Shown: positions 31,707 to 60,386 of the stretch, one piece after another
Layout of the letters: each line of letters starts with the position of its first letter
Position numbering within the stretch: position 1 is the stretch's first letter
From: a virus
Lineage: Duplodnaviria > Caudoviricetes
Direction: 5' to 3' (one strand)
DNA length: 64,000 nt
IMG/VR virus record: IMGVR_UViG_3300032236_001024
Coordinates: 96,001-160,000 of that record
Program-made: the position numbers and the translations under genes
Notes under the pieces: generated by a model
What the model was told of the DNA's origin: nothing
Databases searched by the model: none
The model's input: only the letters and a program-made list of their open reading frames with translations

Positions 31707-32333
31707 TCAATCAAATTTGATTTCTATAACACCAGTAAATTTACCTTCTGGTGGTGGCAATGTAGATATAGAATTAATAATTTTTTCTGCTGTACTGTTT
31801 AGTTTTTGATTAGTAGAGTTGACTATCCAAGTTGACTCTACTTTCCCTTTTAATCCTATTAAGAAACCAATCTTTACGTTTCCTTTTAAACCATCTGGTG
31901 GACGTTTTTTATTCTTTTCAATCATTTTTTTGACATTTGCTCCATATGAAACATTGGTCATACCACCACCTTGAACACCAAAATCAACACCAGCAAGTTT
32001 CTTTTCAAATGTATCGTTTGATGCTTCTTGTTGAAGAACTGGTTTTACTTCTTCTTTCTTTTCTTCTTTTTCTATTGTTTCGGCTGTTTCATCTATAATT
32101 TTAACTTCTTCAATAGGTTTTTCTTCTGTAACAACTTCTTCAATTGCAGTAATAGCTTCTTGAGCTACTGAACTTTCCGTTACTTCATCATCAATTGATT
32201 CACCATATGCTAATTCGATTGCAATTACTTTCGATTGAAAAACAGCCGAATCAGCTTGCTTTGATAAAATAAATGGTATAATAACTCCTATATGTAAAGC
32301 AATTGACGCCAATAATGTAATATATTTTTTCAC
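31707..32333 (-). CDS. TonB-like energy transducer
   Basis: SIALHIG TM with S-x3-H motif, Glu-rich spacer, TonB C-terminal fold (G.V.I.F.I...G.V). Confidence 0.7.
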   Translation of the reverse strand: MKKYITLLASIALHIGVIIPFILSKQADSAVFQSKVIAIELAYGESIDDEVTESSVAQEAITAIEEVVTEEKPIEEVKIIDETAETIEKEEKKEEVKPVLQQEASNDTFEKKLAGVDFGVQGGGMTNVSYGANVKKMIEKNKKRPPDGLKGNVKIGFLIGLKGKVESTWIVNSTNQKLNSTAEKIINSISTLPPPEGKFTGVIEIKFD

Positions 32334-32539
32334 TTATGTAAATCTTTCAATAAGTTTAGATCAATTTTTTTCTTATCGTAGCATTTGCCTTCTGTATTAA
32401 ACCAACTAAATTTAGACCAGAAGATCATAGTCTTTAATGCTTCTTGACATTGCTGCTCTGTCTTGAACTCTAGTGCTATTTTCCCCGGTATATCGGTAGG
32501 AACGCTATTATGTACTACTATTAAAAATAAAATCCACAT
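32330..32539 (-). CDS. hypothetical exported protein
   Basis: MWILFLIV, F..EQQC..A...C motif. Confidence 0.4.
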   Translation of the reverse strand: MWILFLIVVHNSVPTDIPGKIALEFKTEQQCQEALKTMIFWSKFSWFNTEGKCYDKKKIDLNLLKDLHK

Positions 32540-32542
32540 ATT

Positions 32543-33271
32543 TCACGCCCATTTTATTATTTCAAATGATCCGTCATGGTTTTCTACCAAGGCGGTACAT
32601 GATTCTACCCAATCACCACAATTCATATATCTAACGCCGCAAATATCACGAATATTAGCGTGGTGAATATGACCGCAAATAATACCATCTAGCTTTTTAC
32701 CTTTAACATAATTACATAATGTTTCTTCATAATTACCAATAAAGTTTACTGATTCTTTAACTTTATACTTCAAATAAGCTGATAGCGACCAGTAAGGTAA
32801 CCCAAAAACCGTTCTCACTTTGTTAATGAAACGACTAATATTAATACTAACATCATAAGCCCATCCACCAAAGTGAGCAAGCCATGCAGCATTTCGCATT
32901 ACTATATCAAACTGATCGCCATGAGTAACAAGATATAACTTGCCATCAACGCCAACGTGTATGGACTCTTTGACCATGATAATATGACCAAATTCATTGT
33001 CACAATAGTTACGCATAACATCATCATGGTTTCCTGGGATATAAACAATTTCTGTACCTTTTCTAGCTCTACGAAGCAGCTTTTGAATCACATCATTATG
33101 AAACTGAAGCCATATCATTTTCTTAGACATAGCCCAACAATCAACAATATCACCTACTAGATAAACTTTCTCACACTCAAATGTTTTCATGAAATCAAGC
33201 AGTTTGTCCGCTTGACTCATCTTTGTGCCAAGATGAATATCTGAAATGAATACCGTTTTATAAGACTTCAT
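32543..33271 (-). CDS. UDP-2,3-diacylglucosamine diphosphatase-like metallophosphoesterase
   Basis: DIHLG, LVGDIVD, PGNHD, THGDQFD, CGHIH, NCGDWVESCTA. Confidence 0.85.
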   Translation of the reverse strand: MKSYKTVFISDIHLGTKMSQADKLLDFMKTFECEKVYLVGDIVDCWAMSKKMIWLQFHNDVIQKLLRRARKGTEIVYIPGNHDDVMRNYCDNEFGHIIMVKESIHVGVDGKLYLVTHGDQFDIVMRNAAWLAHFGGWAYDVSINISRFINKVRTVFGLPYWSLSAYLKYKVKESVNFIGNYEETLCNYVKGKKLDGIICGHIHHANIRDICGVRYMNCGDWVESCTALVENHDGSFEIIKWA

Positions 33272-33969
33272 CTAAAATCCTTGTATTCGTTTGTGGTAGA
33301 TTTGTTTTTGAACGTCACTGAGAAATAATTTGTAAGGTATAACCATGTAGTTTTTATGACACCTTGCTCTTCAAGTCTTCTTGGAGATGTTGTAGTAACC
33401 ATATACATATTAAATACTACTTTACCAAGATGCTGAATACGTTTTGCAGTCATAGTATCTTCACCATAGAAAGCAATAGATGTATCATAACCACCAACTT
33501 GATCTAGAGCTTTCTTTTTAATCATACAATTGCCGCCCTGAAGAAATACACCAACATTATCATTACTAAATTTTGCAAGAAAATAATAAAACTTTGTCAT
33601 AATCTTTAAACCAAAACTAGCACCTTCGTATTCGAGAGGACCAGTTACAGCAACAACTTCTTCATTTGATAATACGCTCAATGCTTCCCATATCCATCCA
33701 TCAGTCAACTTTGAATCAGCATCAATGTTAGCAATCAACCAACCTCTAGCAGCTTCATAACCAGCTTGTCTTGCGTACACAACCCCCTTACGAGGTTCTT
33801 TAATAACAAAAGCAAGTTCTTCTTCTGCGATTTCAGCTGTTCTATCAGTACAGTTATTATCAACTACAATAATTTCATACGGAACATACCACATATTTTT
33901 TCTGATTGAACGAATGCAATCTTTGATATGTTTTTCTTCGTTATAACATGGAATTATAAATGTAATCAT
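33268..33969 (-). CDS. GT2 glycosyltransferase
   Basis: IIPCYNEE, VVDNNCTD, DAD, GEDT. Confidence 0.88.
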   Translation of the reverse strand: MITFIIPCYNEEKHIKDCIRSIRKNMWYVPYEIIVVDNNCTDRTAEIAEEELAFVIKEPRKGVVYARQAGYEAARGWLIANIDADSKLTDGWIWEALSVLSNEEVVAVTGPLEYEGASFGLKIMTKFYYFLAKFSNDNVGVFLQGGNCMIKKKALDQVGGYDTSIAFYGEDTMTAKRIQHLGKVVFNMYMVTTTSPRRLEEQGVIKTTWLYLTNYFSVTFKNKSTTNEYKDFR

Positions 33970-34502
33970 TTTATTGTCATTTCTTTCTTTATTTTATAAT
34001 ATGAAGTGTTATTTTTTCTAGCAGCTTCGTTAATACCATTATACTCTATACCACGATAAATTATTGTTTTTAATAAAGGATGTTTAAGTCTTTTTTCTTC
34101 AGAACAAGGTTGTTTTTTACTTTTATTTGGGGAAGGTTTACCATACATTGGATTTTTATCGCCAATCATTTTTCTTTTTTCAATCCATTCTGGTGATTGT
34201 TTTAATCCTTTTGCTTTCCCTTTACGGTTTTCACTAATTTTCTTTTTTGTTTCTTCTGTGTGTTTTTTGCCATAAAAAAAATTACCATCACTACGTCTTG
34301 CGTCATACATTATTTTCATTCTTTCTTCTTCTGTTATAAGACCCAAAAGACCTTTCCAAGCAAGATAGTCTTGCCACCTTCCATATTCTTCATAAAGAAT
34401 ATGATGAGCTTCTGCGTGTTCTTCAACAGTCAGTTCAATTAAATTGGAAGGTTCGTCAGTTCCTCCCATATGTTTTGGTATTATATGATGTTTATGTTTC
34501 AT
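33966..34502 (-). CDS. HNH homing endonuclease with NUMOD3 repeats
   Basis: HKHHIIPKHMGG...NLIELTVEEHAEAH; GKKHTEETKKKIS; NPMYGK. Confidence 0.85.
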   Translation of the reverse strand: MKHKHHIIPKHMGGTDEPSNLIELTVEEHAEAHHILYEEYGRWQDYLAWKGLLGLITEEERMKIMYDARRSDGNFFYGKKHTEETKKKISENRKGKAKGLKQSPEWIEKRKMIGDKNPMYGKPSPNKSKKQPCSEEKRLKHPLLKTIIYRGIEYNGINEAARKNNTSYYKIKKEMTIK

Positions 34503-34507
34503 ATATC

Positions 34508-34515
34508 TATTTATA
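34508..34515 (-). promoter_or_regulatory. T4-type late promoter
   Basis: TATAAATA directly upstream of HNH gene. Confidence 0.55.
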
Positions 34516-34538
34516 AATTTTATATTTGTACGATAAAC

Positions 34539-36587
34539 CTATTTTACTGAAGTTCTAAAAATTCCATCCCAGTCTTTTGGTAACGGGTTCTTCTTATAAT
34601 CTTCAATTCTTTCCATCATCATATCATAGTATTCTTTCATCTCACCATTAAATGCTGGTATAAGAATTGTAAAATAATTATCTAATTGATGCCACTTCTG
34701 AGCACGATAGTAATTAATAAATTCTTTGTGGTACTTCGCATACTTCTCGTTGATATATGTTTTATCTACTATGGTATAAATGTTCACACCTTCTGACTTA
34801 CCCTTAACAGCAAGACAATCTAGTTCTAAACATAAATAATCATCCTTTACATACTCATATGTTTTGGGACCAATAACCATTTTTACATGGTATGGTTTAC
34901 TCTGTCCTTCAAGACGAGACGCCAAGTTAACAGTGTCACCCAAGCAAGTGTAATCAAAACGCTGGGCTGATCCCATATTTCCGACGACAACAGAACCAGT
35001 ATTGATACCAAGACCCATACCAAAAGGAGGAACACCATCCGCAGAAATTTCTTTGTTGAATCTGTCCAAGTCACCCAACATCTCCAATGCTGTCTTAACT
35101 GCATGTTTCGCATGTTCTGCATCATCTAACGGCGCATTCCAGAATGCCATCTGAGCATCACCAATGTATTTATCCAATGTACCTTCATTTTCAATAATCT
35201 TAGCAGTCATCGCTGTCATATAGCGATTCATTATTTGTGTAAGACCTTGTACATCACTACCATAGTGTTCAGATATAGTAGTAAACCCACGAACATCAGT
35301 AAACATAATCGAAAGTTCACGAGTCTCACCTCCTAATTTCAATAATTCTGGATTCTTTTGCAACTTCTCAACTAGTGCTGGAGATAGATAGGTTCCAAAC
35401 TGTTTTTTGATCTGTTGCTTGAGTCTAAATTCTCTAGCAAAATTGTTAAAAATTAATTGTCCAAATAGAAAAATACCTGAAACTAGCATGAAGCTTGCAT
35501 CGAATAATTGCATATACCATGCGAACATGTAATAGGATGAAGCAACTGCAAGGAGGACAAACGATGCGAACAACGGAATTGTCAACTTTACTGAAGTACG
35601 TGGAACCAGAAATAGCAATAACCCTAATAGTAATGTCAACAGGATTAGTTCTATCTCTTTGGCATCTGGCAAGCGTGTTATCGAGGTTCCATCAATGAGG
35701 TTCTGTAATGTTTGAGCTTGTATCTCATGTGCCCATTTTTCTCCATTTGGGGTGGAGATTATACCGCCAACGCCTTCAATAGTCAAACCAAGTATAACAA
35801 CTTTACCTTCAACTCTTTTATCAATTTCAGTTGCTTCTAATGAACTGAACTTATTATTCCAAGCTAACCAAATACGACCACGTTCATCAGTCTTGATTGG
35901 TGGATATTGAGGAACTCTTACTGCTTCAACTCCAAACTCATTTGTTTTAACTTGGAAACTTGGGTCTCCAGCTGCAACACGAATGGTTTCCAAAGGAATA
36001 GATGGATATAAATTCCCTGCAATATTAACAAGTAGAGGCATACGGCGAACAACGCCATCGATTTCAGGGATAGTAGCTGAAACCCCGACGCCTGAAGCAG
36101 ATTCTGAAAAGATATCCAGAGGGCGTAATCCACCAGGCCAACGATAAACAACATTATTAGGGTCAACAGAACCAATTGCAGCGAACCCACGACGAACAGC
36201 ATCTGGTTTACTATTTTGAGTAGTTGGGGTTTGAGCAAGGATAACACCATCAAGAGTTTTTGCAAGTTCACTATCTCCCCCTGCTCTATCTTTTTCTGAA
36301 AATATCATAGGTGCCACTATAACTGTGGCACCATTTTCCTTCAGTTTATTAATTGTTTTAGCAATATCTCTACGATCAAAAGGCCACTGACCAAACTTCT
36401 CTACAGACTTTTCACCAAAATTGACTAAAACTAATTCATCTGACTGTTTTTCAGGCAATGTTTTTATTAAATAATCAAATGTCTTTAATTGAAGAGTCTG
36501 AACAGGACTTGGGTTATAAATGTATAATACTATTAAAAGACATGCAGTAATTACTGCTGCCCAAGTACTGGTAAGATACTTCATCAT
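34539..36587 (-). CDS. CHASE2-domain class III adenylate/guanylate cyclase
   Basis: CHASE2 (GQWPFDR, DGVVRRMPL), three TM helices, catalytic FTDVRGFT, DKYIGDA, YTCLGDTVNLASRLEG; K in LDKY indicates ATP specificity. Confidence 0.93.
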   Translation of the reverse strand: MMKYLTSTWAAVITACLLIVLYIYNPSPVQTLQLKTFDYLIKTLPEKQSDELVLVNFGEKSVEKFGQWPFDRRDIAKTINKLKENGATVIVAPMIFSEKDRAGGDSELAKTLDGVILAQTPTTQNSKPDAVRRGFAAIGSVDPNNVVYRWPGGLRPLDIFSESASGVGVSATIPEIDGVVRRMPLLVNIAGNLYPSIPLETIRVAAGDPSFQVKTNEFGVEAVRVPQYPPIKTDERGRIWLAWNNKFSSLEATEIDKRVEGKVVILGLTIEGVGGIISTPNGEKWAHEIQAQTLQNLIDGTSITRLPDAKEIELILLTLLLGLLLFLVPRTSVKLTIPLFASFVLLAVASSYYMFAWYMQLFDASFMLVSGIFLFGQLIFNNFAREFRLKQQIKKQFGTYLSPALVEKLQKNPELLKLGGETRELSIMFTDVRGFTTISEHYGSDVQGLTQIMNRYMTAMTAKIIENEGTLDKYIGDAQMAFWNAPLDDAEHAKHAVKTALEMLGDLDRFNKEISADGVPPFGMGLGINTGSVVVGNMGSAQRFDYTCLGDTVNLASRLEGQSKPYHVKMVIGPKTYEYVKDDYLCLELDCLAVKGKSEGVNIYTIVDKTYINEKYAKYHKEFINYYRAQKWHQLDNYFTILIPAFNGEMKEYYDMMMERIEDYKKNPLPKDWDGIFRTSVK

Positions 36588-37570
36588 TTTGTTTGCCTTA
36601 TAGTTATTCTATTTGATCCACCATCACCTATTTTCGCTGTATTTATGTCGCTATTTCTTTGTAAGTCAATAGAAGCATTTCCGTTTGTACCAAAGTCAAG
36701 AAACAGATGGTTGTTAGCATCATTGTTTGTTCTGGCTGTAGTATTACCATTTTTCTTCTCTATTATAATAACAGGTGATGCTTCTTCTTTTTGATGGAAC
36801 TTGGATTGAATAGATATCTGTTCTTTTTCTATTTGTTCAGCTTCGTTTCTTTGTCTTTGCGACTCATTTCTTTCTTGTAAAGCTGCCATAATTTCTTTTG
36901 GTACAGCAATAATTAATAGATTGTTTATTTGCTTATCTGTGATACCTGTTATCCTGACTGGCTGAATAGGAGCAGCTGATGGTTGAGAAACATATGTAGC
37001 AGTATATGGTTGATCAAGAACTACTACACCAGAAAGAGACATTACTTCTATCTTTCCAGTAACACAACGTCCAACCTGATCACATGATGGAACAAGAACA
37101 ACAAGACTTCTACCAATCTCATCAACAGTCATATTAAAGTCAGTACCACGAACAGCAATAGTAGCAGTGGGCGTTTGTATATCAACTGATTGAGGATTGG
37201 CGTGTGCTATCTGACCAGAAGCATATCTTACTGTACCAAACCCAACTTTCAATCCAAGTTTGCCACCTGATTGATTAGGATTGAATACAAAATCATCTAT
37301 TAATAGTCTTGAGTTTTCTTTGATGACAACTTTTGTATCATCCTTAAACGAAATGTCCACCGTAGAATTTTTAGTCTCTACGGTGTCCATTGATTCTATA
37401 TTCGAGTCTTTAGTGCCTTCTAATAAATCTTTGTTTCTTTTGATCGAAACAACTGGTCCTTCAAGAGTTCTAATTTTACCTATTTCAGCAAAACTAGTTT
37501 GATGTGTGAACAGTAACGTTATTAGAAGTACCAGTAACCTGAAGCTTAACGGTACTATCAATAGTTCCAC
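36584..37570 (-). CDS. FecR-domain periplasmic protein
   Basis: Signal peptide, F.DDT.V.I.ENS, TPTATIAVRGTDF. Confidence 0.82.
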   Translation of the reverse strand: MELLIVPLSFRLLVLLITLLFTHQTSFAEIGKIRTLEGPVVSIKRNKDLLEGTKDSNIESMDTVETKNSTVDISFKDDTKVVIKENSRLLIDDFVFNPNQSGGKLGLKVGFGTVRYASGQIAHANPQSVDIQTPTATIAVRGTDFNMTVDEIGRSLVVLVPSCDQVGRCVTGKIEVMSLSGVVVLDQPYTATYVSQPSAAPIQPVRITGITDKQINNLLIIAVPKEIMAALQERNESQRQRNEAEQIEKEQISIQSKFHQKEEASPVIIIEKKNGNTTARTNNDANNHLFLDFGTNGNASIDLQRNSDINTAKIGDGGSNRITIRQTK

Positions 37571-38156
37571 CTTGGGTTGTTAATACGGTATTCGAGCTAC
37601 CAAGTATATTAATACCCAAAGTGCTACCAGCACCACCCACAGCGTTCATAGTTGAATTCACATTATTCGCATCTCCAGTGACGGAGATATTGCTCGTTGA
37701 ATTGGATTGTGTAATGTTTGTCGTTACTTGATTTGAAGAACCAGTAATAGCAAGGGTAGAACTAATGTTCTGTCCTTTTATTGTTTGACTGACTGTATTT
37801 AAATTGCCAGTTATAGTCTCAGTTATTTGAGAAGATGAACATGTAGTTAAAATATCACCACATGTTAAAGTGAATTGGTTTGAATCACCATTGATAATGG
37901 AACTATAAGTGTTTGTAGAACCAATAATACTAAAGTTATGAATATTATTACTGCCTGTTTGTTTGACAGTAACATTATTAGTATCACCATTACTTAAAGA
38001 ATAAGTTGTAGTGGAACCAATAGAATTGTTTGTTCCTACCTGTTCTAAATCAATAGTAGAAGCAGAACCAAGCTGCTTCATATATATTGAGTTTTGAGCA
38101 TAAGATGTACTCACAGTTGCCAGCATCATAAAGATTGCTAGTAATATTTTATTCAT
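37494..38156 (-). CDS. curlin-repeat-like secreted protein (CsgA/CsgB-like)
   Basis: Signal peptide then about 22-aa repeats (NSIYMKQLG, LEQVGTNN, VKQTGSNN, TGNLN.V.Q, GSSN.V..Q); N/S/T/Q/G-rich. Confidence 0.7.
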   Translation of the reverse strand: MNKILLAIFMMLATVSTSYAQNSIYMKQLGSASTIDLEQVGTNNSIGSTTTYSLSNGDTNNVTVKQTGSNNIHNFSIIGSTNTYSSIINGDSNQFTLTCGDILTTCSSSQITETITGNLNTVSQTIKGQNISSTLAITGSSNQVTTNITQSNSTSNISVTGDANNVNSTMNAVGGAGSTLGINILGSSNTVLTTQGGTIDSTVKLQVTGTSNNVTVHTSN

Positions 38157-38171
38157 TATTTACTCCCGTTG

Positions 38172-38966
38172 TTATTTGAATTGCCAGTATTTCTTCTTCT
38201 CACCTTCCCTGATCATTTCAACAACAGCAGCTTCAATTGCTCTCTGTGTAGCTAGATTCACACTTTCATTAATAGCATGACCAGCTTCACCTTCTATACT
38301 CAATGTACCAGCGTCAACAAATTTCATTATATTTATATTATCAGAGAAACTTAATATAGTTTTTGATGTAGTAACACTTATTAAAACTTCGCCAGTATTT
38401 ACTGATATTACTCTAAGATTTACTGTCACTAAATCCGATCTGTATTGAGTACTTGGACCAATTCCAAATACTCTTACACCAAGACCATCACTTTGAACAG
38501 TTGTATCATAACCGATTACACCACCTTCAATAATCAAACCAGAAAATAAAAGAGGCTCAAGTGGTTTTGCTTTTTCTCCTTCATAAAGATCACGCATCGA
38601 TTTAATAAGTTGACGTTCTTTGATCAAATTATCAACATCAATACGTTCAATTACACGAAACCATTTTCCATCACCAACATCTTGTAATGCTTTGACAAGA
38701 TAAGCATCAGGTGCTTGTGTAACAGCAGATGAAAACACTGCTAATTTATCGTTAGGTTTACGTTGTCCAGTTTGATCTTTAAAATTATATACACTGACAG
38801 TAACTTTACCACCCTTTGGTGGTTTTAATTGATTTTCTTCACGCTTGAAAAAATCTGGATTGACAATTTTTGGTTGTTCAACTATTTGTTCTGGTTCTGA
38901 ATATAGTATTGTTGACGCACACCCACTCAAAAACAAAAAACTGATTGCAGCAATAACTTTTTTCAT
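38172..38966 (-). CDS. csgG: curli secretion channel CsgG-like lipoprotein
   Basis: Lipobox LSGC; VYNFKDQTGQRKP, SSAVTQ, WFRVIER, EGGVIGYD, QYRSD.VTVNLR. Confidence 0.92.
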   Translation of the reverse strand: MKKVIAAISFLFLSGCASTILYSEPEQIVEQPKIVNPDFFKREENQLKPPKGGKVTVSVYNFKDQTGQRKPNDKLAVFSSAVTQAPDAYLVKALQDVGDGKWFRVIERIDVDNLIKERQLIKSMRDLYEGEKAKPLEPLLFSGLIIEGGVIGYDTTVQSDGLGVRVFGIGPSTQYRSDLVTVNLRVISVNTGEVLISVTTSKTILSFSDNINIMKFVDAGTLSIEGEAGHAINESVNLATQRAIEAAVVEMIREGEKKKYWQFK

Positions 38967-38973
38967 TTTTCAC

Positions 38974-39417
38974 CTATTGAACAAAAGTAGTGCTTGGAAC
39001 AATCAATTCAGTTGTTCCTTTGGGGGTTACAGTAGTAACTGTAACTGTTCCATTAAGATTTTTCTGCCAAGAAATAGTTGTAGTACCAAAAGTAATAATA
39101 CCATGATCAACACCATTACCAAAAATAGAATTAGTAACTTGCTGAGATAATTGTTGATAAACCATTGAATTCAATGTCATAACAAACTGATTAATTGGAT
39201 CAGAAGCAGCTTTAGCCGCTTCTTCTGCTTTTGCAAGAGAAATATTATCTTTGATTTTTTGTTTGTTTGCTTGCTCCAACTGATAGATGCTGGTTACATG
39301 TGCTGTATAACCATTACCATTAAATGCTGGAGAATTAAATTGGAATTGTAAATCATCAGCTAATGAGTTTGTTGCAAACAAAGAAAGCAAAAATACAAAT
39401 AATAATCTCATAATCAA
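38974..39417 (-). CDS. csgF: curli assembly protein CsgF-like
   Basis: Signal peptide then DLQFQFNSPAFNGNG, the CsgF N-terminal peptide that binds CsgG. Confidence 0.8.
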   Translation of the reverse strand: MIMRLLFVFLLSLFATNSLADDLQFQFNSPAFNGNGYTAHVTSIYQLEQANKQKIKDNISLAKAEEAAKAASDPINQFVMTLNSMVYQQLSQQVTNSIFGNGVDHGIITFGTTTISWQKNLNGTVTVTTVTPKGTTELIVPSTTFVQ

Positions 39418-39662
39418 ACTCCTGTTTTTTTCTTATTTATTGTTTTTCGATTTTCTCTCTTGTTTTTTTCATACCAGAACTTACTACTAGTACGGAGCTT
39501 TTCAGCACTAACTCTTACATGCTCAAGAAGAGCAGTGGCAAGTACCGATTGATGATACCGCCACTCTCTGTCTTCTTGTTCAACCATATCGGTTATTAGT
39601 TCCAGAGCCATATCTACATATGGACAAACGTGCTCAGGAACTACTGGTTTCTTTGTGTTCAT
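39414..39662 (-). CDS. hypothetical protein
   Basis: PEHVCPYVD motif; coupled ORF. Confidence 0.5.
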   Translation of the reverse strand: MNTKKPVVPEHVCPYVDMALELITDMVEQEDREWRYHQSVLATALLEHVRVSAEKLRTSSKFWYEKNKRENRKTINKKKTGV

Positions 39663-40345
39663 ATGTCAAGCGCATCCTTGAGTGATGGGAACTTCTCAAC
39701 GATCTGATTCCCAGCATCGATAGCAATCTCACGATGTTCCTTCTGAGTCTCTGGACCAGAGCGAAGTTGGCAGTAATGAATCCAAGAACGAAGCGTTCCA
39801 TTCATATACATACGAGAAACAGTCAGACCTTCTGGAAGAACAGCACGAGCCTGTTCCTTAGCAATACCTCTACGAATAGCCCAATTATATGCTTCCTGAG
39901 AGTTTGCAATTACTTCTTCTTGCTTCTTACGCCATCCATTCTGTAGTTCAGGATCATCATATTCAATAGAATTCTGACGATTCTTCTCATCCTGAATACG
40001 TGCTTCACGAGCAAAGAAACCCAAGTCCTGAGTAGGATCAGCATAACGCTGAGAGAATTCCTGAAACGAGAACGAACGGTGACGAAGAATCTGACGAGCA
40101 ATATCACGAGTCGTATTGATTTCCATCACAACACTGACCATTTCAAATGGAGACCAATGCTTATGCTTGGCAAGATAACGAAGAAGCTTGGTTGCAGTCA
40201 GTGTGTTGTTCTGATTGGATGGATTGGAAACACGAGCTACATAAGCAACAAATTCATCAACAGACATTAAAGGAGCAGCAGTTCCAATATTACCATTAAC
40301 GCTAATCGTAGGTTGAGTGATAGCAATAATTCGAGCATTATTCAT
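39659..40345 (-). CDS. thyX: FAD-dependent thymidylate synthase
   Basis: HWSPFE, RQILRHRSFSFQEFSQRY, KEQARAVLP, QKEHR. Confidence 0.95.
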   Translation of the reverse strand: MNNARIIAITQPTISVNGNIGTAAPLMSVDEFVAYVARVSNPSNQNNTLTATKLLRYLAKHKHWSPFEMVSVVMEINTTRDIARQILRHRSFSFQEFSQRYADPTQDLGFFAREARIQDEKNRQNSIEYDDPELQNGWRKKQEEVIANSQEAYNWAIRRGIAKEQARAVLPEGLTVSRMYMNGTLRSWIHYCQLRSGPETQKEHREIAIDAGNQIVEKFPSLKDALDI

Positions 40346-41374: not shown

Positions 41375-41466
41375 TGGTAGGGGCTACAGGATTCGAACCT
41401 ATTCGAGAACGCTAATCGGGCGCTAGAAGGTTTATAAGACCTCCCTGTGTACCAACACCAACCCCC
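41375..41466 (-). tRNA. non-canonical tRNA with TAT anticodon and long variable arm
   Basis: GTGT-TGGT-ACAC D arm, GGAGGT-CTTATAA-ACCTTC anticodon arm, about 23-nt V arm, AGG-TTCGAAT-CCT, ACCA. Confidence 0.7.
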
Positions 41467-60302: not shown

Positions 60303-60386
60303 TGGCGGAGGGTAAAGGAATCGAACCATCAACCTTGCGGTGGCAGAGTTTTCAAGACTCTTTGAGCACCTTGCTCGCTACCCTCC
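60303..60386 (-). tRNA. tRNA-Ser(TGA)
   Basis: AGAGT-CTTGAAA-ACTCT, long V arm, G discriminator, CCA. Confidence 0.85.

Follow-up and report, generated by a model that had tools for sequence, protein, structure and literature searches.

Viral curli export genes joined to a FecR/CHASE2 adenylate cyclase pair, beside a separable envelope gene cassette, in a 202-kb T4-like phage genome

Do the genes packed on the minus strand between positions 31707 and 39417 of a 64,000-nucleotide stretch of phage DNA (the window, bases 96001-160000 of the IMG/VR virus record IMGVR_UViG_3300032236_001024) form one system, and what could such a system do for a phage? The 202,141-bp record is a complete genome with direct terminal repeats, its closest named relatives are the T4-like Kyanoviridae Pelagibacter phage HTVC008M, Methylophilales phage Melnitz and Pelagibacter phage Mosig, and the G+C content of the window is about 35%. 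Our gene calls, taken from a listing of open reading frames (ORFs) combined with Pfam and NCBIfam scans, place eight genes on the minus strand, just where a first-pass annotation had put them: CsgF, CsgG, a curlin-repeat protein, a FecR-domain protein, a CHASE2 adenylate cyclase, a family 2 glycosyltransferase (GT2), a metallophosphoesterase and a TonB-like protein. Two further ORFs that it had passed over lie within the run, an HNH/NUMOD3 homing endonuclease gene (33966-34502) and an ORF of 69 residues (orf69, 32330-32539). That annotation had taken the eight genes as a single module converting a surface signal into cyclic AMP (cAMP). The reading that we favor, with somewhat more confidence than doubt, is instead that of two adjacent but separable cassettes: cassette A, a viral type VIII secretion system (T8SS) combined with a FecR/CHASE2 cAMP sensor, and cassette B, an independent envelope/lipid module, with the HNH gene lying between them.

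The unity of the first five genes was assessed by their co-occurrence in 160 viral loci from IMG/VR, 80 of them seeded with csgG and 80 further ones seeded with the cyclase. Every csgG-seeded locus with at least 6.5 kb of downstream sequence carries a FecR gene (34/34), and in 32 of these 34 the cyclase gene lies on that strand too, while in two it is present but rearranged. Conversely, CsgF, CsgG, curlin and FecR are all found in the 48 of 48 cyclase-seeded loci that have at least 5 kb upstream. The set csgF-csgG-curlin-FecR-CHASE2 cyclase is thus a real and strongly conserved unit, obligatory in the surveyed viruses, and the linkage proposed for these five genes by the first-pass annotation holds. 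The window carries them in this order on one strand, as expected of a viral T8SS-FecR-cyclase cassette, and 32 of the 34 csgG-seeded and all 48 cyclase-seeded loci share the order.

The remaining genes behave differently. Among the same 160 loci, GT2 is found in 4, the LpxH-like metallophosphoesterase gene in 11 (2 csgG-seeded and 9 cyclase-seeded, the latter out of the 48 above, in variable places) and the TonB-like gene in none; curli genes stand without cassette B in about 130 viral loci, and it is missing from HTVC008M and Melnitz and from almost every one of the 160 loci. Three close relatives (L165, L166 and L171) show the order thyX, csgF, csgG, curlin, FecR, mini-curlin, cyclase, GT2, metallophosphoesterase, TonB-like, with no HNH gene. 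Three other phage loci (L167, L169 and L170) carry a PstS-like binding protein gene followed by GT2, metallophosphoesterase, orf69 and the TonB-like gene, with curli and cyclase genes absent within 10 kb of this cassette; the orf69 position is held in these three by an ORF of the same size, and a blastp match to orf69 lies beside an LpxH-like gene in L205. Since cassette B occurs without curli in some phages and curli without cassette B elsewhere, these are two separable cassettes, adjacent only in the sub-lineage of L165, L166 and L171 to which the window belongs. GT2, the LpxH-like gene and the TonB-like gene therefore have to be taken out of the curli-signalling module in which the first-pass annotation had included them.

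The five-gene core itself has already been published in pelagiphages, in 2020 and 2022 (PMC7029224, PMC9004378, PMC9599517). In 2020, csgF and csgG were reported in pelagimyophages, with a function termed unclear, and freshwater pelagimyophages were described as lacking curli genes (PMC7029224); the 2022 analysis of Melnitz proposed a role in lysis timing (PMC9004378). Neither of these two papers mentions the cyclase or FecR. The gap that the first-pass annotation saw in the literature on the linked signalling genes is real only in part, since a 2022 paper had already tied FecR and the cyclase to phage curli genes: it describes the full module of CsgF, CsgG, CsgA/B, FecR, an optional second CsgA/B and adenylate cyclase in podo- and myo-pelagiphages and shows it at each of 65 ocean stations as well as in metatranscriptomes, with viral curli cassettes accounting for about 0.1% of the viral proteins assembled in that ocean survey (PMC9599517). 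The same study states that bacterial T8SS operons are devoid of FecR and cyclase, and treats the second CsgA/B and an upstream histidine kinase as frequent, optional parts; CHASE2 and TonB go unmentioned in it.

When compared to these pelagiphage systems (PMC9599517; gp014-019 of HTVC008M; gp99-104 of Melnitz; metagenome-assembled genomes of pelagimyophages, PMC7029224), the window shows identical genes in identical order, in the same genomic slot between replication genes (on the side of ssb and of thyX, which encodes a flavin-dependent thymidylate synthase) and structural genes, and its CsgG is 43-46% identical to those of HTVC008M and Melnitz. Yet it has one curlin gene, whereas in most viral loci FecR and cyclase are separated by a further NGSTQ-rich gene or by an 87-residue mini-curlin. 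Its FecR protein is shorter, with a charged helix in place of the acidic LD-x-DFL repeats of other pelagiphage-type FecR proteins; no histidine kinase lies upstream, where an 82-residue ORF (orf82) and thyX are found instead of this frequent pelagiphage arrangement; and the HNH insert and cassette B follow downstream, in a 202-kb genome. The locus is a further member of the published type, a single-curlin variant with an HNH insert beside a separate GT2/LpxH-like/TonB cassette.

CsgG (38172-38966; PF03783, E 8.5e-49, 166 bits) is an outer-membrane lipoprotein pore protein with the lipobox LSGC, and matches the solved E. coli CsgG chains 3x2r and 6l7a over residues 3-262 (E 8.4e-49). Of the three constriction residues of the E. 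coli pore, only F56 looks kept in the alignment, which we regard as a lead only. The CsgF-like protein (38974-39417; PF10614, E 1.2e-14, 55 bits against a cut-off of 25.8) has a signal peptide and a mature N-terminus reading ..LQFQFNSPAFNGNG.., in which the FQF-N-P-F-GN motif of the CsgG-binding peptide is present; a phmmer search of the PDB with the phage protein did not match E. coli CsgF. The third gene (37494-38156) encodes a secreted, N/G/S/T/Q-rich repeat protein of curlin type, matched only weakly by the NCBIfam CsgA model (1.5e-4) and a candidate fibre subunit. The Pfam curlin repeat (PF07012, Curlin_rpt) is found in 14 of its 17 orthologues (best 2e-12), and its AlphaFold2 (AF2) model is a solenoid, a stack of 20 short strands with a predicted local distance difference test (pLDDT) score of 89, for which Foldseek returned nothing from the PDB at E <= 0.001, and weak beta-helix rows only. 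Judging from the orthologues and the fold model, this is a secreted curlin-repeat subunit whose capacity to form amyloid is putative. As in the enterobacterial csgBAC/csgDEFG loci, the phage thus has a CsgG lipoprotein pore, a CsgF in which the N-terminal peptide is conserved, and a repeat subunit that is secreted and has a Q/N/G ladder; unlike them, it has no CsgE, CsgC/H, CsgD or recognizable CsgB, and its curlin is devoid of a Gly-rich N22-type leader. An 87-residue secreted mini-curlin with two or three Q/N/G repeats lies between FecR and cyclase in two of the close relatives (L165:6255-6518 and L171:6255-6518); the clade of the window is without it, by loss or because it was never present.

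The FecR-domain protein (36584-37570; PF04773, E 1.1e-10) is periplasmic and consists of a cleavable signal peptide, a FecR/RIN-like beta domain (residues 27-217), a charged helix (225-257) and a small C-terminal beta domain ending in I-x-I-x-Q. Its AF2 model (pLDDT 81.8) aligns with the periplasmic C-terminal signalling domain of PupR (6ovk) at a VIA-align Z of 15.5. The likely start is a TTG codon at 37561, five bases after AGGTGG, so that the last ~68 nt of the curlin gene, read in a different frame, encode the signal peptide. Overlaps of 40-77 nt between curlin and FecR recur in orthologous loci, which points to a coupled translation of the two proteins. Gene callers miss the true FecR start, for example in L165.

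Directly behind, with a 4-nt overlap (ATGA), follows the gene of the receptor adenylate cyclase (34539-36587; CHASE2, PF05226, 1.5e-38; catalytic domain, PF00211, 5.1e-21). The protein has an N-terminal transmembrane (TM) segment, a periplasmic CHASE2 domain (residues ~25-310), three TM segments and a class III catalytic domain, such that the CHASE2 domain is held between TM segments. Residues D431, K473, D477, D551, R558 and K595 do not vary among 21 phage cyclase orthologues, while position 554 is N in 17 and S in 4 of them. Within class III cyclases, the two aspartates (D431 and D477) bind metal, K473 and D551 select adenine, and the Asn/Arg pair stabilizes the transition state. The catalytic residues are thus intact, and by established class III rules they predict an active, adenine-specific enzyme.

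Where could this receptor pair have come from? We surveyed the 80 nearest bacterial relatives of the CHASE2 cyclase, mostly from Alphaproteobacteria and 30-36% identical to it. An ORF matching the FecR profile lies within 10 kb of the cyclase in 30 of these 80 loci, and within 1 kb in 19, while CsgG, CsgF and curlin are found in none (0/80). Looking from the other side, 7 of 401 sampled alphaproteobacterial genomes encode a CsgG at 41-46% identity, beside CsgF and curlins, with no FecR or cyclase gene within 9 kb of these seven csgFG loci. Comparable neighbourhoods have been described as a LysM-FecR and CHASE2 kinase operon, BiofilmReg, in Burkholderia (PMC5192318) and as a cluster of CHASE2 cyclase, FecR, phosphodiesterase and TPR genes in Campylobacterota (PMC9239204). 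Bacteria thus repeatedly pair a CHASE2 receptor with a periplasmic FecR-type protein as a sensor, and the gene of a secreted FecR-domain protein adjoining, often with an overlap, that of a TM-CHASE2-TM receptor is what the phage shares with them at the level of the genes. The differences are twofold. The bacterial pairs are never linked to CsgG/CsgF in the genomes sampled, unlike those of the phage, and the bacterial FecR partner is often LysM-bearing or a giant RTX/cadherin adhesin, whereas the phage version has 325 residues with a small C-terminal domain of its own. Given bacterial FecR-CHASE2 pairs without curli and bacterial curli loci without FecR or cyclase, the phage cassette looks, among the genomes sampled, as if curli export genes had been fused to a sensor pair that bacteria already possessed. 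A bacterial copy of the whole cassette was absent from the 80 cyclase-seeded loci, the 7 csgG-seeded loci and 3 whole genomes, which represent only a small sample of bacteria.

From the gene identities, the topology signals (signal peptides on CsgF, curlin and FecR, the lipobox on CsgG, CHASE2 between TM segments), the intact cyclase and the obligatory viral co-occurrence, we infer the following working for the two cassettes. Within cassette A (34539-39417), CsgG and CsgF would furnish the infected cell with an outer-membrane channel, ungated as there is no CsgE, and this channel would export the single curlin-type subunit, which could polymerise as a surface fibre. The FecR protein and the CHASE2 cyclase, probably acquired as a stand-alone bacterial envelope sensor, would have been coupled to curli export for as long as the latter has existed in viruses: FecR may signal to the CHASE2 domain, presumably by contact, a condition of the periplasm or outer membrane associated with curlin export, and the cyclase would then make cAMP to be read by host proteins. 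Cassette B (31707-33969) would act as an independent envelope/lipid module, the HNH gene having been inserted between the two. Understood in this way, the envelope-to-cAMP conversion put forward by the first-pass annotation is reasonable, considering the conserved unit and the recurrent FecR/CHASE2 pairing, and an amyloid or pore state may be the signal, as it had suggested; what does not stand is a TonB relay and the membership of GT2 and the LpxH-like gene. A complex prediction for FecR residues 29-215 with CHASE2 residues 25-310, made with alignments, scored 0.02 against a mark of 0.32 and counts as evidence neither way.

Several observations weigh against this proposal. The curlin-type protein of the window has no Pfam curlin match of its own. 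CsgE (PF10627) has no match in the complete phage genome, in a search that detected the E. coli control, and no CsgB-type nucleator is recognized, the genome holding a single curlin gene and no other Curlin_rpt match. Cells infected with Melnitz showed no clumping (Buchholz et al., PMC9004378). Finally, the complete genome encodes no cyclic nucleotide (cNMP)-binding domain, which leaves host proteins, or a reader that escaped recognition, as the targets of any cAMP.

Among the alternatives, the one that survives best, although rather unlikely in our judgement, makes the FecR protein itself a threaded mini-adhesin: its N-terminal domain would plug CsgG from below, its C-terminal domain would reach the surface or the fibre, and the CHASE2 cyclase would read the engagement of the plug. 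The structural likeness behind this idea is to 5IX9, the N-terminal, periplasmic domain of MpIBP, a LapA-like ice-binding adhesin from Marinomonas; this domain has been proposed to plug a TolC-like pore, and the LapA retention module was modelled on it. VIA-align superposes FecR residues 27-122 on it (Z 7.5, rmsd (root-mean-square deviation) 2.0, 73 of 76 residues, 26% identity), Foldseek gives a probability of 1.00 and a TM-score of 0.74 by target, and a profile of the phage FecR proteins has 5IX9 as its best PDB match (E 0.035). The phage N-domain thus shares the 76-residue beta-sandwich fold of the LapA/MpIBP retention module (RIN). We had at first assigned this likeness to the FecR C-terminal domain, as a "C-terminal plug", and dropped it when VIA-align put the match at residues 27-122.

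The bacterial neighbourhoods speak for a plug as well. FecR-domain neighbours of bacterial cyclases are often 1,200-2,350 residues long and combine FecR at the N-terminus with cadherin/Ig/VWA domains and RTX repeats, and the FecR domain may act there as a type I adhesin retention module. At four loci (L085, L138, L110 and L104), the bacterial CHASE2 cyclase is preceded by adhesin-like proteins of 977-2354 residues, also with VWA or laminin-G domains. The lack of CsgE in the phage also favors this model, and the C-terminal I-x-I-x-Q strand of FecR, with a Gln (Q326) that is invariant in the orthologue alignment, resembles the last curlin repeat (HHalign P 0.0026). However, the HHalign probability is only 11.6%, none of 24 FecR tails matches Curlin_rpt in Pfam (a single Big_9/cadherin match is an added bacterial segment), phmmer and profile searches of the PDB with the C-terminal domain gave nothing meaningful, and the tail looks more Ig-like. 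Furthermore, the linker is a predicted helix that should not fit the narrow CsgG constriction, and, unlike LapA and MpIBP, the phage protein is exported by a Sec signal peptide rather than a type I secretion signal and has no RTX repeats, nor any other Pfam match besides FecR. A more general form of the idea, in which CHASE2 domains read the periplasmic FecR/RIN plug domains of surface-anchored proteins, these being adhesin retention modules in bacteria and a miniature grafted on a CsgE-less pore in the phage, seems to us attractive but on the improbable side.

That CsgG and CsgF serve as a pore only, as proposed by Buchholz et al. (2022), we consider unlikely. These authors see in them a gated secretin or pinholin that would depolarise or open the envelope late in infection, with no fibre, on the basis of structure modelling and of synteny with thyX and the transfer-messenger RNA gene in Melnitz (PMC9004378); thyX is the upstream neighbour in our phage too, and the absence of clumping in Melnitz cultures agrees with their view. 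But the proposal assumed that there is no curlin gene, whereas a secreted curlin-type protein, modelled as a solenoid, is present in every locus surveyed. CsgG also sits in the outer membrane and hence cannot depolarise the inner one, and FecR and the cyclase, conserved as strongly as the pore, are given no role.

Decidedly improbable is a third explanation, in which an ungated CsgG imports cofactors or siderophores and FecR is a regulator of the iron-citrate type, although the idea has been raised in the literature (PMC7029224, PMC9599517) and the missing CsgE gate and the very name of FecR invite it. The phage protein does share the periplasmic FecR fold with FecI/FecR/FecA-TonB-ExbBD systems, as its alignment with PupR indicates, but it has neither the cytoplasmic anti-sigma domain nor a TM anchor. 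A TonB-dependent receptor, ExbD and ExbB (PF00593, PF02472 and PF01618) have no match in the phage genome; no FecI-type extracytoplasmic function sigma gene lies beside the cassette, and the sole Sigma70_r2 match of the phage, at 20 bits, is under the cut-off and ~60 kb away on the 202-kb record. The output of the phage system would be a cyclase rather than a sigma factor, with no transducer. Bacterial FecR relatives, moreover, pair with CHASE2 receptors and adhesins and not with iron transporters, and the conserved curlin would be left unexplained. The missing anti-sigma domain, TM anchor, sigma partner, TonB-dependent receptor and ExbB/ExbD also undo the analogy to a FecR-TonB relay drawn in the first-pass annotation. 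Its full chain, with TonB energising the path or transmitting an outer-membrane signal to FecR and the cyclase, is scarcely credible to us: co-directional and tightly packed genes, the same contiguity in L165, L166 and L171 and a retained S-x3-H motif in the TonB-like TM helix favor it, but cassette A does without GT2, LpxH-like and TonB-like genes in HTVC008M, Melnitz and nearly all viral loci, GT2, metallophosphoesterase, orf69 and TonB travel together without curli or cyclase in L167, L169 and L170, a homing endonuclease splits the two blocks in this phage, and ExbB, ExbD and a TonB-dependent receptor are lacking.

Turning to cassette B of the two-cassette reading, its first gene encodes the GT2 glycosyltransferase (33268-33969, minus strand; PF00535, 1.5e-27), followed by the LpxH-like metallophosphoesterase (32543-33271; PF00149, 7.5e-12), by orf69, known from the ORF call, and by the TonB-like protein (31707-32333; PF13103, 3.9e-5, 24.1 against a cut-off of 22; TIGR01352, 28.1 bits against 27.1). 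The name diacylglucosamine hydrolase first given to the second of these is too strong: it scores 54.7 and 44.9 bits with the curated LpxH models, far under their cut-offs of 134 and 190, and its PDB match to LpxH (E 2.9e-6) covers the N-terminal half only. The TonB-like protein looks genuine, with an N-terminal TM helix carrying S-x3-H (..SIALH..), a motif with a known role in the TM helix of TonB, an E/K-rich rather than Pro-rich linker and a TonB_C domain scoring at about the cut-off; it would need a motor from the host, the phage having no ExbB or ExbD. Its gene goes with those of GT2 and the phosphoesterase rather than with the cyclase. Relatives of the protein are found in metagenome contigs of up to 160 kb (39 at 70-100% identity), and tblastn against GenBank phages gave no match. 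The LpxH-like gene of Mosig also adjoins a phosphate transporter gene, and cassette B follows the PstS-like gene in L167, L169 and L170; by analogy, this phosphate-gene context may recall the lipid-renovation operon of phosphate-starved SAR11, with the Mn metallophosphoesterase PlcP and a glycosyltransferase (PMC8231724).

The HNH/NUMOD3 gene (minus strand; PF07460, 1.6e-8; TIGR01453) is a mobile insert that belongs to neither cassette. It lies between cyclase and GT2, a place where L165, L166 and L171 have no such gene, and copies that are 97-99% identical occur with other junctions in metagenome contigs from lakes and freshwater; in one of these contigs, the LpxH-like gene is directly next to the HNH gene, with no GT2. 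Apart from the probable source sample, the only public sequencing runs with near-identical pieces (X5, X8 and X10) are labelled freshwater or lake water, in contrast to the absence of curli genes reported for freshwater pelagimyophages (PMC7029224). The lineage may thus be a freshwater one, although the near-identity in those runs is confined to the HNH gene and its flanks.

Upstream of cassette A and outside it, thyX (39659-40345, minus strand) is a conserved neighbour, with tblastn matches of 59-70% at the equivalent position in Melnitz (L002) and in L005 and L006, and PF02511 matches in L165 and L171. Between thyX and csgF lies orf82 (39414-39662, minus strand), which has no assigned function, overlaps both neighbours by 4 nt and has no relative among the viral loci surveyed. 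As the tight packing with 4-nt overlaps runs on through orf82 to thyX, contiguity alone is not evidence of a single operon or functional unit. A scan for promoters and terminators found promoter-like sites at the frequency expected from shuffling and no clear operon boundary among terminator-like sites. The word TATAAATA is present 14 times against 7.1 expected; one copy of this late-promoter-like word lies at 34508-34515, beside the HNH gene. A tRNA array lies downstream. ARAGORN and Rfam agree on 11 tRNAs; ARAGORN adds a long tRNA-Ile(UAU) and a tRNA-Ser(UGA) (41375-41466 and 60303-60386, minus strand), both missed by the Rfam tRNA model at its gathering score.

What, then, does the locus tell us? 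This instance adds no new kind of system. Viral curli cassettes give hosts that lack curli genes a new surface structure, and what they do is relevant to aggregation, superinfection and carbon export among very abundant bacteria. Our surveys sharpen the question of their function, since the viral cyclase and FecR always come with the pore and the sampled bacterial ones never do. To our knowledge, no ligand of a CHASE2 receptor is known. The strict viral coupling, together with the likeness of FecR to an adhesin retention plug, offers a concrete hypothesis for the input of CHASE2 domains. If it is true that CHASE2 reads such plugs, this would be the first defined CHASE2 input and would provide a mechanism for the phage cassette, by which the infected cell would turn "fibre or pore engaged" into cAMP.

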